A DNA stretch of 33,563 nucleotides. Source: a virus. Taxonomy: Duplodnaviria; Heunggongvirae; Uroviricota; Caudoviricetes. Of the stretch, positions 5,360 to 30,008 are shown piece after piece; position 1 is the first letter of the stretch, and every line of letters starts with the position of its first letter. The notes below the pieces were generated by a model. The model was not told where the DNA came from. It did no database searches and worked only from the letters and a program-made list of their open reading frames with translations. The DNA lies in the IMG/VR virus record IMGVR_UViG_2541047945_000006. The stretch is one strand, 5' to 3'. Both the position numbers and the translations under genes were made by a program.

Positions 5360-5526
5360 GGACGGCCTTGTTGTTTCAAAATATCCCAAAGCTTTTCGAG
5401 CAAGCTTTTCATTCTTGGTTGTTTAAAGTCTGCTCCGGTTAAAATATTTTTTCGTGAATGCTGCACCGATAAAATCGGGTTGAAAGGGCGAACCGATGCC
5501 GCCCCTGCAATAGCGAACTGTTGCAT
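5356..5526 (-). CDS. cIII: CIII-like regulator (FtsH inhibitor that stabilises CII)
   Basis: 56-aa ORF (MQQFAIAGAASVRP...SLLEKLWDILKQQGRP) resembling lambda CIII (MQYAIAG...LIDILNQPG); AAGGAG SD 8 nt upstream. Confidence 0.7.
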   Translation of the reverse strand: MQQFAIAGAASVRPFNPILSVQHSRKNILTGADFKQPRMKSLLEKLWDILKQQGRP

Positions 5527-5590
5527 AGGATGCTCCTTCTGTTTGATTGCATAACGAAAACGCCTCAAGTGAAGCGTTATTGGTATGAAT

Positions 5591-5616
5591 ATAAAAAAGC
5601 CCTCACATCGGAGGGC
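5591..5616 (-). terminator. Putative intrinsic terminator in the pL operon (GCCCTC-CGATGT-GAGGGC plus UUUUUU)
   Basis: Hairpin 5599-5616 followed on the minus strand by a U-run; located 65 nt upstream of cIII. Confidence 0.5.
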
Positions 5617-5732
5617 AAAGAAGATTTCCAATAATCAGAACAAGTCGGCTCCTGTTTAGTTACGAGCGACATTGCTCCGTGTATTCACTCGTTGGAATGA
5701 ATACACAGTGCAGTGTTTATTCTGTTGTTTAT

Positions 5733-5761
5733 GCTAAAAATAAAGGCCGACTATGCGGCCT
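5733..5761 (-). terminator. Putative intrinsic terminator overlapping the stop of the 207-aa gene
   Basis: AGGCCG-CATAGT-CGGCCT hairpin followed by UUUAUUUUU on the minus strand. Confidence 0.45.
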
Positions 5762-6374
5762 CGGAAGGAAGTCCAATCATCTTATTCAAATCTTCTACCC
5801 GTAAAGCAGGAAGTGCTGTACTTGCTTTATCTGCTTCTTTTGGTAGCAATTCTTTGCTTTCAGGCCAAACTTCAATAAGTCGCTTAACTGTTGTGACTGA
5901 GTTCAAAGCAGCCCATACATTTGATTCGATATCCTTTTTCTTGGCTTCAAGTTTTTGTTGCAATGCGCAGATTTCATCAAACCTTTTTGTTATTTCGTGC
6001 TCTGCGTCAAACATGCATTTATCTTTGGTCGGAGTAGGGAGCAATATATCTTCGCCGTTGCCGTCTTTCCCATATGAATGCCATCCAACCCTTCTGCCAG
6101 ATACAGTCAGATAAATTGAAGTAGAACGAACATCGTATGAGTAAAATGAACATCCCAGTTTTTCAAGTTCTTCACTTATAGCTACTAACTTGGAATATAA
6201 ATGATCCACTTCCTCAGTTTTCTTTTTACCGCCAAACGCAATAACTCTGGCGTCAAGTGCAAGCTGGTTCTTTAACTTTGTTACTTCTTCAAGTTCAGTG
6301 AAAACCCCAGACTTAATTAAAGCGTTACGAGCGATTTCCTCTTTCATTCTCGTAGTTAAGCGGATTGATGACAT
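5751..6374 (-). CDS. Hypothetical protein (207 aa) in the pL operon between N/sieB and cIII
   Basis: ATG at 6372-6374 with GAGAGGAA SD; charged, coiled-coil-like N-terminus; no family recognised. Confidence 0.65.
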   Translation of the reverse strand: MSSIRLTTRMKEEIARNALIKSGVFTELEEVTKLKNQLALDARVIAFGGKKKTEEVDHLYSKLVAISEELEKLGCSFYSYDVRSTSIYLTVSGRRVGWHSYGKDGNGEDILLPTPTKDKCMFDAEHEITKRFDEICALQQKLEAKKKDIESNVWAALNSVTTVKRLIEVWPESKELLPKEADKASTALPALRVEDLNKMIGLPSEAA

Positions 6375-6385
6375 ATTAATTCCTC

Positions 6386-6589
6386 TCAAATAAGTGGTTT
6401 GCTGCCTAATTTCATTTTCTGGCGACCAACACAAGTCACCCCCATTTCACTGCGTGGCTTGCGGTAGTAAAGATTGTGCCTGTCTTTTAACCACATCAGG
6501 CTCGGTGGTTCTCGTGTACCCCTACAGCGAGAAATCGGATAAACTCTATTCACCCCTACAGAGAGCAAAAGAGAAACGCCGATGAACAA
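6386..6589 (-). other. ORF whose C-terminus resembles the lambda N C-terminus (possible N gene remnant)
   Basis: 67-aa track ORF ending ...YYRKPRSEMGVTCVGRQKMKLGSKPLI, which resembles the lambda N end (...WYSKPGERGITCSGRQKIKGKSIPLI) as I recall it; it lacks an arginine-rich motif. Confidence 0.4.
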
Positions 6590-7163
6590 CTCATGGTGGC
6601 AGGAACTAATGCATTTTTTCCTGCAAGGAATGACACTTAAACAGTTGATTCATATGCTAATCATCCTGATCATATTGATTATTGTTATGCCGGTAAGCGT
6701 AAAAGAATGGATAAACCTGCATAATCCAGAAATCCTTCCTCATTACTGGATGTATTACATCCTGTTGTTTTGCGTTAGCTATGTGCTTAACGGCGTTGTT
6801 AATTCCGCTTATCACGCTGTGACTGAAAGAATTGAGGTATTCGCTGCTCAGAAGCGCAAATCTAAAGAAGAGAAATACGTGCAAGATTTGTTTGATTCGT
6901 TAACTCTTGGAGAAAGAGCGTATTTGGCACTCGCTGTAGTCGCTAATAACCAGCTACAAACGGAAAAGGGAAGCCCTGAAGCAATCTCATTGCTCGAAAA
7001 AGGGCTTCTTATTCGGATACCTTCTGCTACTGGATATCCTGAAATCGACCGTTTTGTTATCCCAGAACGCTATAGAAATGAGTGCTACATTAGGTTTGCT
7101 GGGAAGAAAGACAGTCTTATGGATGAACTTATCGCTCAGGATAAGCACGGCAAAAACAAGTAA
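6582..7163 (+). CDS. sieB: Superinfection exclusion protein B
   Basis: 193-aa protein closely matching lambda/P22 SieB from memory (MNNSWWQELM.FFLQGMTLKQLIHMLIILI...); hydrophobic N-terminal region; convergent with N. Confidence 0.82.
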   Translation: MNNSWWQELMHFFLQGMTLKQLIHMLIILIILIIVMPVSVKEWINLHNPEILPHYWMYYILLFCVSYVLNGVVNSAYHAVTERIEVFAAQKRKSKEEKYVQDLFDSLTLGERAYLALAVVANNQLQTEKGSPEAISLLEKGLLIRIPSATGYPEIDRFVIPERYRNECYIRFAGKKDSLMDELIAQDKHGKNK

Positions 7164-7179
7164 TTAGCAAATTAATTTA

Positions 7180-7452
7180 TCATCTTGCTGTCAGTTGTTT
7201 TGATTTCCGATAGCCTGCCGCGTAAAGAGCTACATTTGGAAGACAAGTTGAGCCTTCATATTTTCTGGTCAACGTTGTCAGTGTTATTACTTCTGCTCTC
7301 ATTGCTGGTTTGCGCTTGCATTGCAAGACCACTCGTGAAGGGGTTGGCCTGTGTAGCTTGTCGGAGCTGATCGCCTCCTGACTTTGCAGATTTGCACGAC
7401 GAGCTCTACGGCGAGAAGCTGCGGTGCCTTTAAATTCTGTTTTTCTGGACAT
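7180..7452 (-). CDS. N: N-type transcription antiterminator with arginine-rich motif
   Basis: 90-aa ORF from ATG 7450-7452 (GGGAGGAA SD); N-terminal arginine-rich motif KGTAASRRRARRANLQ resembles phi21/P22 N; sits immediately downstream of a boxA/boxB nutL site. Confidence 0.7.
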   Translation of the reverse strand: MSRKTEFKGTAASRRRARRANLQSQEAISSDKLHRPTPSRVVLQCKRKPAMRAEVITLTTLTRKYEGSTCLPNVALYAAGYRKSKQLTAR

Positions 7453-7550
7453 AGATTCCTCCCGAATAAACTTTGGCGATGCAATCTCGAAGCCCCTCCT
7501 GAGACGGTTGCTTCGGCATTGCATCCCACAGCTTATGTGGTTGGGTGATC

Positions 7551-7596
7551 TGGCTTTTCAGCCACGTAGTCGAGTGTTCGACGTTGTTTAAAGAGC
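7551..7596 (-). promoter_or_regulatory. nutL: nutL-like site (boxA GCTCTTTAAACAA and boxB hairpin TGGC-TGAAAA-GCCA)
   Basis: Read on the minus strand between the pL candidate and N; boxA resembles the CGCTCTT(T)A consensus and boxB matches the nutR boxB loop at 10119-10132. Confidence 0.55.
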
Positions 7597-7642
7597 CTGC
7601 CAGTCTGTTCCGTTTGGCTTACAGCGTCCTGCTGATGAGTTA

Positions 7643-7690
7643 ACTTTATCGAAATGATAAATTAATGGCAATAGCAAAATGATAAATTGT
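7643..7690 (-). promoter_or_regulatory. OL operators and candidate pL (-35 TTGCCA, 17-bp spacer, -10 TAAAGT on minus)
   Basis: 17-bp palindrome TTTATCGAAATGATAAA at 7645-7661 and direct repeats AAATGATAAATT at 7652-7663 and 7677-7688; same GATAAA half-sites and -10 TAAAGT as in the OR region. Confidence 0.5.
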
Positions 7691-7865
7691 TTTAGTTTTC
7701 AAATATCCTGTTGATTATTATGGTTTTTTATTTGATTGCAGGAATTTATCAGAAGGAATAAAGAGACTTGAGGGGGATCAGAATTGCGCGTTTTAGTGAG
7801 TTGTATCTGTTTATTTTTCAACAAATACAATTGGTTATGGTGTTATTAGGTGTGGGGATCGTGAG

Positions 7866-7893
7866 GCAAAGAAAACCCGGCACTGAGGCCGGG
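7866..7893 (-). terminator. Intrinsic terminator after the cI-proximal cargo gene (CCCGGC-CTCAGT-GCCGGG plus UUUUCUUU)
   Basis: Perfect 6-bp GC stem followed by a U-run on the minus strand, 12 nt after the stop of ORF 7905-8951. Confidence 0.6.
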
Positions 7894-7904
7894 TTTGGAG
7901 TGCA

Positions 7905-8951
7905 TCACTCTGGTTCGCTGGGGAATATATTTATCAATTGTCCTGTTGAAATGTGTCCATTTTCTACAACCTCTAGGTATGAAATTTCAACAGTTGATTC
8001 TTTGGCTACAGCATTCAAAAACTCAAGAAGCTCATCAGTAGATGTTATGTCGGCTGAGGTTTTTATGGTGAAAGATTCACCATTTGAAACCCTTGTGACG
8101 TCAATATTTATGTCCTGATTTGTTTCTCCCGAGCGACGAACGCCCGTGACATAAAAGTTATCTCTTCTAGTTTCCTTTTTTCGATCAATTGATTGCCTTT
8201 GGTTTAAGGTATTCAACTGTTCTCTATTTACCACTCTCTGACCAATTGTTACCTTCTCAACTGACGAGTCTTGAGCAAGCTTTTTAAGCAACTTGCTTTT
8301 ACCATCCTCGCCGTGAGCCAGAACCTCTCTGCTAATGTTTGTTTGACCGCTAATCAACAACTTGAGCACATTGTCTTGTGCTTCGTTTACCGCTTTGGTG
8401 CTTTTTTCCACCAATTGCACCTGAGAATCTTGGTCATGTCGCTGTGTTTCGTAGTACTCATTGATCCACTTATAGCCTACCGTGCTGGCAGCTAAGACGA
8501 TAGCGGCGACGGCGCATAGTGCTTGCCTTCCTGTCATTTTGCCTATCGCTTGAGTTAACACTGTCACCACTCCGTTTACAATCGGATCTGAGTCACCATC
8601 CGCTTGGCTTGAGCCTTCGCTTATTCGGTAGACAATATCCAGCAAACCTTTCTCTGCATCTTTTAGCTTCTGCCGATTATGAGTGCTGTGACTGACTACC
8701 GTAAATGCTTTTTGTATTTCATGCGTAAGCTCTGCCATACCAAAAAGCATTGACGCAGTCAATGAAGAATTATATCTATTTGGATCGCCTTTTACATTAA
8801 TATTGATCTTTGGCCATCCACTGAAAACTACGCTAGGGAATGTGAAGTCGCTTGAGTCGATATCCTTCCTTCCGAGCATTTCTGTTACAAAAGATACAAA
8901 GTCGTCTTCTGACTTGATAACATATTGCGCAGGTTGATCAATCGCTGACAT
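7905..8951 (-). CDS. Uncharacterised 348-aa protein with one predicted transmembrane helix (rex-slot cargo)
   Basis: ATG at 8949-8951 with AAGGA SD, 76 nt downstream of the cI stop on the same strand; hydrophobic segment LCAVAAIVLAASTVGY mid-protein; no Walker A or other motif I recognise; unlike RexA/RexB. Confidence 0.8.
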   Translation of the reverse strand: MSAIDQPAQYVIKSEDDFVSFVTEMLGRKDIDSSDFTFPSVVFSGWPKININVKGDPNRYNSSLTASMLFGMAELTHEIQKAFTVVSHSTHNRQKLKDAEKGLLDIVYRISEGSSQADGDSDPIVNGVVTVLTQAIGKMTGRQALCAVAAIVLAASTVGYKWINEYYETQRHDQDSQVQLVEKSTKAVNEAQDNVLKLLISGQTNISREVLAHGEDGKSKLLKKLAQDSSVEKVTIGQRVVNREQLNTLNQRQSIDRKKETRRDNFYVTGVRRSGETNQDINIDVTRVSNGESFTIKTSADITSTDELLEFLNAVAKESTVEISYLEVVENGHISTGQLINIFPSEPE

Positions 8952-9027: not shown

Positions 9028-9732
9028 TCACGAATTTTTCAGCCACTCCCTTGCCTCGATGTCATCCAGATGACGAGATTGCTTCAGAATACCAGCCACA
9101 TACTCCACCTTTGCTACTTGATGATAAGGCAACGTTATTGGCCTATGGTCCTGGTTGATGCTTGTAAACTGGTATTCTCCGTCTCTGTCATAGCCAAGAA
9201 CTTTGATCATGTTGTGTCCTTCAACGGTTCTGACAAACACCTCATCACCCGGGAATACTTTGGTGTTAGGCTCAATGAGTACATATTCTCCTGATTTTAT
9301 TCTAGGCCACATGCTGTCTCCTTTCACACGAAGACCAAAGGCATCTGGATCATCGCTATAAATCTTGAGCCACCCATCGCGCTCTTCGGTCATCTCGATG
9401 GCACCATCAACACCAAGAATTGCCTCACCAACCACGCGCACTAACCCTTTTCTTACCTGACCGACAAAAGTTAAAGAATCTGAGCATGATGCAATTGGTG
9501 TTACATCATGTACCAAATCAAGCCACCCATTAGGTAACCCAAGTGCGGCTTCGAATTTTCTTGCTAGTTTATCCCCTATGTTTCGAGTGCTTTTTTCACC
9601 GGAGACTTGCGTGAGTTGAGAAGGGCTAACTCCAAGCTTATCGGCAAAGCTTGCATTAGTGTTACCCGCGATTTTTTTATGCTCATCTAGCAAAAACGCC
9701 AGATTCGATTTGCGAATATCTTTGTTTTCCAT
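9028..9732 (-). CDS. cI: CI-type prophage repressor (HTH plus LexA-like S24 autopeptidase domain)
   Basis: 234-aa ORF; N-terminal HTH region and C-terminal S24 domain with the GDSMWP motif and a lysine further downstream; divergent from cro across an operator region. Confidence 0.9.
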   Translation of the reverse strand: MENKDIRKSNLAFLLDEHKKIAGNTNASFADKLGVSPSQLTQVSGEKSTRNIGDKLARKFEAALGLPNGWLDLVHDVTPIASCSDSLTFVGQVRKGLVRVVGEAILGVDGAIEMTEERDGWLKIYSDDPDAFGLRVKGDSMWPRIKSGEYVLIEPNTKVFPGDEVFVRTVEGHNMIKVLGYDRDGEYQFTSINQDHRPITLPYHQVAKVEYVAGILKQSRHLDDIEAREWLKNS

Positions 9733-28589: not shown

Positions 28590-30008
28590 ATGCCAATTCA
28601 GCAACTTCCGCTTATGAAAGGTGTCGGCAAAGACTTTCGAAACGCCGACTATATCGACTATCTGCCAGTGAATATGTTGGCTACACCCAAAGAAATCCTC
28701 AACAGCAGCGGATATCTTCGCTCATTCCCGGGCATTGCCAAACGCTCTGATGTAAACGGCGTATCGCGCGGCGTCGAGTACAACATGGCGCAGAATGCTG
28801 TTTATCGTGTGTGTGGCGGCAAGCTCTACAAAGGCGAAAGCGAAGTCGGTGATGTCGCCGGAAGTGGTCGTGTATCAATGGCGCATGGTCGGACATCACA
28901 GGCGGTAGGCGTTAATGGTCGACTGGTCGAGTATCGCTATGATGGCACGGTTAAAACAGTCTCAAACTGGCCTACAGACAGCGGATTCACTCAGTATGAG
29001 TTAGGTTCAGTCCGCGATATTACGCGCTTACGTGGGCGTTATGCGTGGTCAAAAGACGGAACTGATTCATGGTTTATCACTGACCTTGAAGACGAATCAC
29101 ATCCTGACCGTTACAGCGCACAATATCGTGCCGAGTCTCAGCCTGACGGCATCATCGGCATCGGAACATGGCGAGACTTCATCGTCTGCTTTGGTTCATC
29201 GACGATTGAATATTTCTCCCTGACGGGGGCAACCACCGTTGGTGCCGCTTTGTATGTCGCACAGCCATCGCTGATGGTGCAGAAAGGCATTGCCGGAACT
29301 TACTGCAAAACGCCGTTTGCTGATTCGTATGCGTTTATCAGCAATCCGGCAACGGGTGCGCCGTCTGTATACATCATCGGATCAGGTCAGGTATCACCAA
29401 TCGCCAGCGCGAGCATTGAGAAAATCCTCCGCTCCTACACTGCTGATGAACTGGCTGATGGCGTGATGGAATCGTTGCGGTTTGATGCTCATGAATTGCT
29501 GATTATCCACCTTCCGCGCCATGTTCTTGTTTACGACGCATCTTCAAGCGCCAATGGTCCGCAATGGTGTGTACTGAAAACAGGCTTGTATGACGATGTG
29601 TACCGCGCTATCGACTTCATTTACGAAGGAAATCAGATAACGTGCGGCGATAAGCTGGAATCGGTGACCGGGAAATTGCAGTTCGATATCAGCAGCCAGT
29701 ACGACAAGCAGCAGGAACACCTGCTGTTTACTCCGTTGTTCAAAGCGGATAACGCCAGAGTGTTTGACTTTGAGGTTGAATCGTCAACTGGCGTTGCGCA
29801 GTACGCCGACCGCCTTTTTCTCTCTGCAACCACTGACGGCATCAATTACGGGCGTGAGCAGATGATTGAGCAGAATGAACCGTTCGTTTACGACAAACGC
29901 GTTTTGTGGAAGCGCGTCGGGCGAATAAGGAAAAATGTCGGCTTCAAATTGCGCGTTATCACTAAGTCACCTGTCACTCTGTCAGGCTGCCAGATAAGGA
30001 TCGAGTAA
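28590..30008 (+). CDS. Tail accessory factor (P22 gp10-like)
   Basis: 472-aa ORF closely matching P22 gp10 from memory ([46 protein letters not shown]...). Confidence 0.85.

Follow-up and report, generated by a model that had tools for sequence, protein, structure and literature searches.

An N-gene remnant joined to the sieB promoter region of a lambdoid phage as a probable old recombination scar

We analysed a 33,563-nucleotide stretch of viral DNA (Caudoviricetes; IMG/VR record IMGVR_UViG_2541047945_000006), hereafter called the window. The open reading frame (ORF) list and the sequence agree on three adjoining elements between positions 6386 and 7452: a 67-residue ORF on the minus strand (6386–6589), a 193-residue ORF on the plus strand (6582–7163) and a 90-residue reading frame on the minus strand (7180–7452). 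This is a standard lambdoid early-left arrangement, in which pL, nutL and the antiterminator gene N are followed by the superinfection-exclusion module sieB/esc/sas on the opposite strand. The original prediction, made from the sequence alone, held that the 67-residue ORF ends like lambda N, that the two N-related segments around sieB betray a recombination scar and that their junction marks the exchange point of an immunity cassette. Our analysis indicates that positions 6386–6471 are an old recombination scar, a leftover of N fused to the sas/PsieB region, which is neither a gene nor the immunity exchange point; we give this reading a probability of roughly 0.85.

The 67-residue ORF ends in GVTCVGRQKMKLGSKPLI, and its last 27 residues share 16 identities with lambda N by BLASTP (E = 1e-7). 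The resemblance noted in the original prediction is significant, and the match at the DNA level is better still to N genes of the phi21/Stx-phage type: the tail is indeed derived from N over its last 27 codons, but its type is that of phi21 and 933W, not lambda. Positions 6330–6471 of the window match Stx2a phages at 100% identity (E = 2e-66 over 142 nt), with 86/86 nt falling within intact N. In Stx2_131033 (LC616039) the equivalent of 6330–6471 is the 3′ end of an intact 113-residue N (...NRIYYRKPRSEMGVTCVGRQKMKLGSKPLI), directly upstream of the same Nmad5-family gene that follows here. The relic (minus strand, 6386–6471, 86 bp) comprises the TGA stop and the last 27 codons (YYRKPRSEMGVTCVGRQKMKLGSKPLI) of an N whose tail ends in PLI. 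All 27 residues (27/27) are identical to Stx2a-phage N, and over about 86–87 bases the DNA shows 96.6% identity to the phi21 N of lambda imm21/DE3, which lacks sieB and has N21 immediately after orf28. Like phi21 and Stx2a N, the relic stands directly upstream of the next early-left gene; unlike them, it has no arginine-rich motif, central region, start codon or nut site.

The homology to N ends abruptly at 6471|6472, after ...GCGGTAGTAAA, and the bases beyond (GATTGTGCC...) belong to the region upstream of sieB. Homology to sieB-bearing phages begins at 6454, giving an overlap of 18 bp (6454–6471). The prediction of a recombination scar holding the 3′ end of an old N is borne out by this sharp switch from one homology to the other: the segment is nearly identical to the end of an intact gene, the breakpoint is sharp and the rest of the gene is lost. 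It also looks dispensable, being variably eroded or absent in relatives. An extension of N homology past 6471 (BLASTP with a MAFFT extension to about 47 residues, with RC..YY and about 20 further residues) was considered and rejected. When residues 1–40 of the ORF were compared with 101 tail-trimmed N proteins, the best local score was 26 against a shuffle mean of 26.4, with 106 of 200 shuffles scoring equally or better; we therefore confine the relic to 6386–6471. Gene remnants at mosaic junctions are a general and known phenomenon in lambdoid phages, and the relic resembles them in its truncated gene end, sharp homology breakpoint and variable presence.

Judged by sequence, the breakpoint abuts a normal P22-type sieB/esc/sas module standing beside a normal N, and an exclusion function can be predicted for it. 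The 193-residue ORF (6582–7163, plus strand) encodes a SieB superinfection-exclusion protein (Pfam SieB, E = 3.8e-24) 83% identical to that of P22. Homology to the P22 annotation places an in-frame internal start for esc at sieB Met25 (6654–7163, plus strand); in P22 the esc start lies 72 nt past the sieB start, and residue 25 is Met in both proteins. A putative sas antisense RNA region occupies 6461–6586 on the minus strand, with 123 of 127 positions identical to the P22 sas RNA given in table 2 of a 2026 RNA-seq paper (PMC13397905). It spans the start codon, Shine–Dalgarno sequence and 5′ untranslated region of sieB, overlapping the sieB start as expected for this module, then runs antisense through PsieB, and its final 11 nt fall inside the N relic. 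PsieB (6515–6545, plus strand) is assigned by homology to the annotated P22 promoter, from which it differs by 0 mismatches, and the P22 RNA start maps to about 6552. Both positions derive from features 29690–29720 and 29727 of the P22 record, mapped via a gap-free alignment. As in P22, the module is convergent with N in the early-left operon. The two loci differ to the left of sas, where P22 has only a vestige of about 30 nt with 61 bp gone and the window has the full 86-bp relic, and in the left neighbour, which is ral in P22 and an Nmad5-family gene here.

Pairing of P22 sas with the site where sieB translation begins shifts synthesis from SieB to the in-frame Esc (PMC12197685, summarising Ranade & Poteete 1993). 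By homology, SieB would be made from PsieB in the prophage, while in lytic growth sas would pair with the Shine–Dalgarno sequence and start codon of sieB so that Esc alone is translated. A consensus scan for promoters and terminators recovered pL, and neither PsieB nor a promoter or terminator for sas. An Rfam scan of 5500–8500 at E ≤ 1 returned three sub-threshold chance matches and no sas family. Folding of the minus-strand RNA from 6640 to 6440 gave a stability not above that of shuffles (z = +0.64), and an alignment fold of eight sas-region homologues contained no compensatory pairs; given these null fold tests, structure adds no support for the sas region beyond its sequence conservation. 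That conservation is concentrated in a nearly invariant core, TTCTCGTGTACCCCTACAGCGAGAAATCGGATAAAC...CACCCCTACAG, at window positions 6505–6562 (also at about 930–1000 of locus L014, about 380–450 of L015, and in L012 and L009). Within the core are an inverted repeat, TTCTCG/CGAGAA, and two copies of CCCCTACAG spaced about 38 nt apart; Yersinia and Phytobacter retain the core as well, despite a SieB identity of only 52–54%. About 91 of the 127 nt of sas are located ahead of the sieB RNA start, which means that base pairing to the mRNA cannot account for the conservation of the core.

The PsieB block also occurs in front of other genes. In E. coli O26:H11 11368 (L009, 2694–3188), Stx1a_10051 (L002) and HK446 (L012, 1602–2096) it drives an unrelated 164-residue gene that replaces sieB, and in O26 and Stx1a_10051 the long N relic stands beside this combination. 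The 164-residue gene has no Pfam match, and PADLOC gave only a sub-threshold Cas10 match. It seems that alternative genes, expressed in the lysogen, occupy this slot behind N. Two further database entries look like mis-binning or contamination: JAJXBQ010000254.1 (L013), binned as a Segatella copri metagenome-assembled genome, contains a lambdoid sieB-N region of enterobacterial type whose SieB is 91% identical, and MW057783.1, named Campylobacter phage CJLB-4, has a 98.5% match to the lambda sieB-upstream block at lambda-like coordinates.

On the far side of sieB, the 90-residue reading frame (7180–7452, minus strand) has the sequence of an ordinary lambdoid N antiterminator, for which antitermination activity is predicted. 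It matches Pfam PF25694 N_peptide (E = 3.4e-32) over profile positions 5–100 of 100, showing N similarity along its full length. The protein is 99% identical to the N of ev207, and the DNA is 95.5% identical to the ev207 group. Its arginine-rich motif, GTAASRRRARRANL, aligns with those of phi21 and P22 and is nearest to phi21 GTAKSRYKARRAEL, so the description of this frame as an intact N with a motif of that kind was correct. The C-terminal tail is of the P22 type, ending in TAR; the last 21 codons and stop (CLPNVALYAAGYRKSKQLTAR; 7180–7246, minus strand) are common, together with sieB, to many phages. Two classes of tail, ...PLI and ...TAR, can be distinguished among N proteins, each of which pairs freely with different arginine-rich N-terminal parts; in Stx1a_10051/O26 (L002, 3584–3856), for example, a phi21-like middle is joined to a TAR tail.

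This N opens the pL operon. It is preceded on its own strand by a pL-like promoter, TTGCCA-17-TAAAGT (7643–7671, read 7671–7643), found in the consensus promoter scan, the conserved pL leader CATCAGCAGGACGC and a nutL region (7551–7596), agreeing with the earlier placement of N right after nutL. Read as RNA and aligned with nutL of lambda, P22 and phi21, the sequence places boxA (GCTCTTTAA / GCUCUUUAAACAA) at about 7596–7584 and two candidate boxB hairpins at 7582–7569 (GUCGA-ACAC-UCGAC) and 7564–7551 (UGGCU-GAAA-AGCCA), all on the minus strand. The second hairpin has a lambda-like GNRA loop, yet the arginine-rich motif of N is phi21-like.

The junction GTAGTAAA|GATTGTGCC is not peculiar to this phage. 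It is found in lambda, lambda imm434, P22, ST104, HK140, ev207 and many P22-like Salmonella phages, which differ in immunity, and it is uniform in every sieB-bearing phage examined that matches from window position 6454. In lambda, P22 and ev207, the stretch separating the orf28/ral start from PsieB reads CCATAT(A/C)TCA(C/T)CT(T/C)AAATA-GTGGATTGCGGTAGTAAAGATTGTGCC. Each of these phages aligns to the Escherichia coli prophage FDAARGOS_1288 (L007) with a single 61-bp gap, which ends within the imperfect direct repeats GTGGTTTGC and GTGGCTTGC (GTGGnTTGC). FDAARGOS_1288 has the order ral, orf28, full 86-bp relic, PsieB, sieB, N, and is identical and collinear with DE3 (phi21 N) as far as GTAGTAAA, diverging beyond. 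The gap alignment and the collinearity with DE3 therefore make FDAARGOS_1288 an exact intermediate between the arrangement in which N21 precedes orf28 in the operon (orf28 <- N21) and that of lambda. Lambda and P22 carry a fossil of about 30 nt of a phi21-type N tail. In the lambda orf28–sieB intergenic region (lambda 34358–34481), the same junction and PsieB block form a 108-bp vestige-and-promoter segment that is 94% identical to window 6454–6561 (L004, 474–581). Lambda differs in that the 61-bp deletion has cut its relic to about 30 nt, its N tail is of the PLI type, and its SieB is only 23% identical to that of the window, with a joint at the RNA start (about 6561).

The long form of the relic was present in 1 of 239 matching phage records (238/239 were without it) and in 58 of 5426 complete E. 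coli genomes, with three kinds of left neighbour: ral/orf28, Nmad5 and a 156-residue hypothetical protein. Other PsieB blocks have different left joints and no relic, at about 6477 in Lambda_4B5 and HK446 and about 6500 in ABTNLsp11242. A search of genome contigs with SieB returned only three sieB loci; in the distant ones of Yersinia and Phytobacter (SieB 52–54% identical) no relic was detected, and a TAR-type N tail lies beside sieB. The comparisons indicate that the scar is old and shared among lambdoid phages. A limited full-text literature search found no description of this relic.

We used pairwise BLAST of 5600–7800 against nine reference loci to map the mosaic joints, which lie at about 5754, 6385, 6454–6471, 6561, 7246 and 7588–7643. 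The joint at about 7246 is inside N: HK140, VT1-Sakai, P22 and FDAARGOS_1288 share 6454–7246 with the window, that is, sieB and the last 21 codons of N, and matches to these and other phages end at 7243–7246. Phage ev207 has 6454–7643 (sieB, N and nutL) in common with the window at 95.5% identity and a different repressor region. It follows from this sharing that the joints nearest immunity are those at about 7246, in N, and at 7588–7643, in the boxA–pL block, rather than 6471. The breakpoint sought around sieB was thus located, at 6454–6471, but it is common to phages of different immunities and is not the immunity exchange point of this phage, contrary to what had been proposed.

The following history would account for these observations. 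A block of PsieB/sas, sieB and a convergent N with a TAR tail would have existed first, as it does in Yersinia. Illegitimate recombination would then have joined this block to the early-left operon of a phage whose N had a PLI tail, with the crossover 86 bp before the N stop codon; the 5′ portion of the older N together with all sequence to its right would have been replaced, leaving the old tail stranded beside the genes downstream. The junction would have been inherited and spread among lambdoid phages by homologous exchange through flanking conserved segments. In the lineage leading to lambda and P22, 61 bp of the relic would have been lost between the imperfect GTGGnTTGC repeats, and the window would retain the undeleted form. 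The sequences themselves show the homologies, the breakpoint, the deletion relationship and the identity to sas; we infer a single origin for the junction and this direction of events. The more specific proposal, that the sieB loci of lambda and P22 alike go back to one ancestral capture of the sieB/sas/N(TAR) block by a phi21-type phage, with rare E. coli prophages keeping the undeleted intermediate, is one that we favour by a modest degree.

Several points weigh against the reading of 6386–6471 as an old, non-genic scar. The polarity of the events is inferred rather than observed, and a cross between a phage with an intact PLI-tail N and one with the short vestige might in principle have recreated the long form seen here through the 18-bp overlap (6454–6471). 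The deleted form is not the exact product of a clean repeat-mediated event, having one base fewer and a C/T-to-A change. The 67-residue ORF is open in this window, as it is in FDAARGOS_1288, and a few automatic annotations call a similar ORF (P0001–P0005), for example as ‘MAG TPA: Transcription termination/antitermination protein’. These last two points would also speak for a real gene, either the whole ORF or a 36-residue version from Met32, carrying the tail of N that binds RNA polymerase; the last 27 residues of a PLI-type N correspond to the region that contacts RNA polymerase in lambda N. The position of the ORF within the pL operon, with its stop codon 8 nt ahead of the Nmad5 start, fits such a gene too. 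Its composition does not: codons 2–43, about two thirds of the ORF, are sas antisense RNA over the sieB promoter and leader, with no similarity to N, so that the ORF as a whole is not the separate N-related segment it had been taken for. The N-family C-terminal tail is present in it, and the arginine-rich motif and central region are not. The first start is a TTG lacking a Shine–Dalgarno sequence; in NRG857C and O26 11368 the frame is shortened in its upstream part by an in-frame stop, the 61-bp deletion in lambda, P22 and ev207 throws the frame out of the N tail, and the relic is deleted in most phages. The ORF has neither a Pfam nor a PADLOC match, none of the 30 RefSeq genomes listed has a feature under the match, and no coding sequence crosses it in the three regions examined in detail. 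The alternative that the original prediction had itself raised, a conserved independent gene, is at odds with these stops, frameshifts and missing annotations, and we consider a real gene very unlikely. The 67-residue ORF (6386–6589, minus strand) is judged to be no gene, a fortuitous frame in which, by accident, the old N frame meets no stop codon along the antisense strand of the sieB leader and promoter, and the automatic annotations are regarded as artefacts of the N tail. The relic itself presumably lacks function. It is equally hard to credit that the stranded tail is active, whether as a 36–67-residue peptide from the pL transcript serving as a decoy against the N of co-infecting phi21/Stx-type phages or through translational coupling of Nmad5.

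Other origins for the N-like segment can be weighed in the same way. Chance resemblance has practically no probability given the 86/86 nt match to intact N genes, its E value over 142 nt and the synteny of the relic, which lies upstream of the same genes as intact N in relatives; 6386–6471 is a genuine remnant from the 3′ end of another N allele. Had this very phage recently exchanged its immunity/N cassette, an old N tail would likewise have been left and 6471 would be the exchange point, and the two flanks do resemble a junction of two lineages, with 100% identity to Stx2a phages on the left (6330–6471) and about 95% to the ev207 group on the right. The occurrence of the same junction in phages of many immunities (lambda, imm434, P22, HK140 and ev207) has already largely refuted this explanation, which we consider improbable; the junction also recurs beside the same Nmad5 gene in NRG857C and OkiPb01694, ev207 has N and nutL in common with the window as far as 7643 but a different repressor region, and the closest joints to immunity lie elsewhere, at about 7246 and 7588–7643. 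Somewhat less improbable, though still unlikely, is a simple moron insertion, in which a sieB cassette with its own TAR tail entered an N with a PLI tail, swapping the tail and displacing the old one. The shared unit 6454–7246 does have N-tail sequence at both borders, and identical N-terminal parts are found with either a TAR or a PLI tail (P22 gp24 versus P0006; Stx1a_10051 N versus P0011). Phage L points the same way: it lacks sieB, and its gp24 shares 96% identity with that of P22 over the N-terminal 75 residues and then has an unrelated tail (PMC8022706). However, the tail-swap point in these N pairs lies 8–9 codons upstream of the start of the relic, which a clean insertion does not fit, and for this reason we hold simple cassette insertion into N to be less likely than the joining of blocks. 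Yersinia and Phytobacter have sieB with a TAR-tail N and no detectable PLI relic, which suggests that a sieB–N(TAR) block already existed, and lambda has a PLI-tail N beside sieB and the vestige as well.

For annotation, the region is better labelled as sas RNA, PsieB and an N pseudogene fragment; some pipelines label the 67-residue ORF ‘antitermination protein’, and it should not be called a gene. The relic also offers a datable landmark, as the lambda and P22 sieB loci share both the promoter block and the phi21-type N-tail fossil. That they do so despite 23% SieB identity, a figure for which the window SieB (83% identical to that of P22) stands as the P22-type representative, argues that the block entered the E. 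coli/Salmonella lambdoid pool via one junction, with later exchange of the genes behind it. The joints at 6385, 6454–6471, 6561, 7246 and 7588–7643 map where N, sieB and their neighbours are exchanged. The relic is an ordinary mosaic-joint remnant that implies no new mechanism and adds a modest evolutionary footnote for lambda and P22; its main value is for clean annotation and for the natural history of phages.

Directly downstream of the relic, the Nmad5-family gene (5751–6377, minus strand; Pfam Nmad5, E = 1.6e-71) fills the slot of ral/orf28 in lambda, and its Shine–Dalgarno sequence abuts the stop codon of the relic. The linkers that flank it, 5600–5754 and 6385, show 97% identity to lambda, DE3 and ev207. 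An insertion sequence with ORFs of 108 and 296 residues interrupts this gene in Stx2_131033 (L001, 1183–2396). Beyond pL, a LexA-like repressor with a Peptidase_S24 domain lies at 9028–9732, and a 348-residue ORF (7905–8951, minus strand) sits between it and pL, in the position of rexAB in lambda. Pfam and PADLOC gave no match for this ORF, which may be an uncharacterised prophage-expressed gene. It is followed on the minus strand, at about 7895–7865, by a GC-rich hairpin and a run of T.

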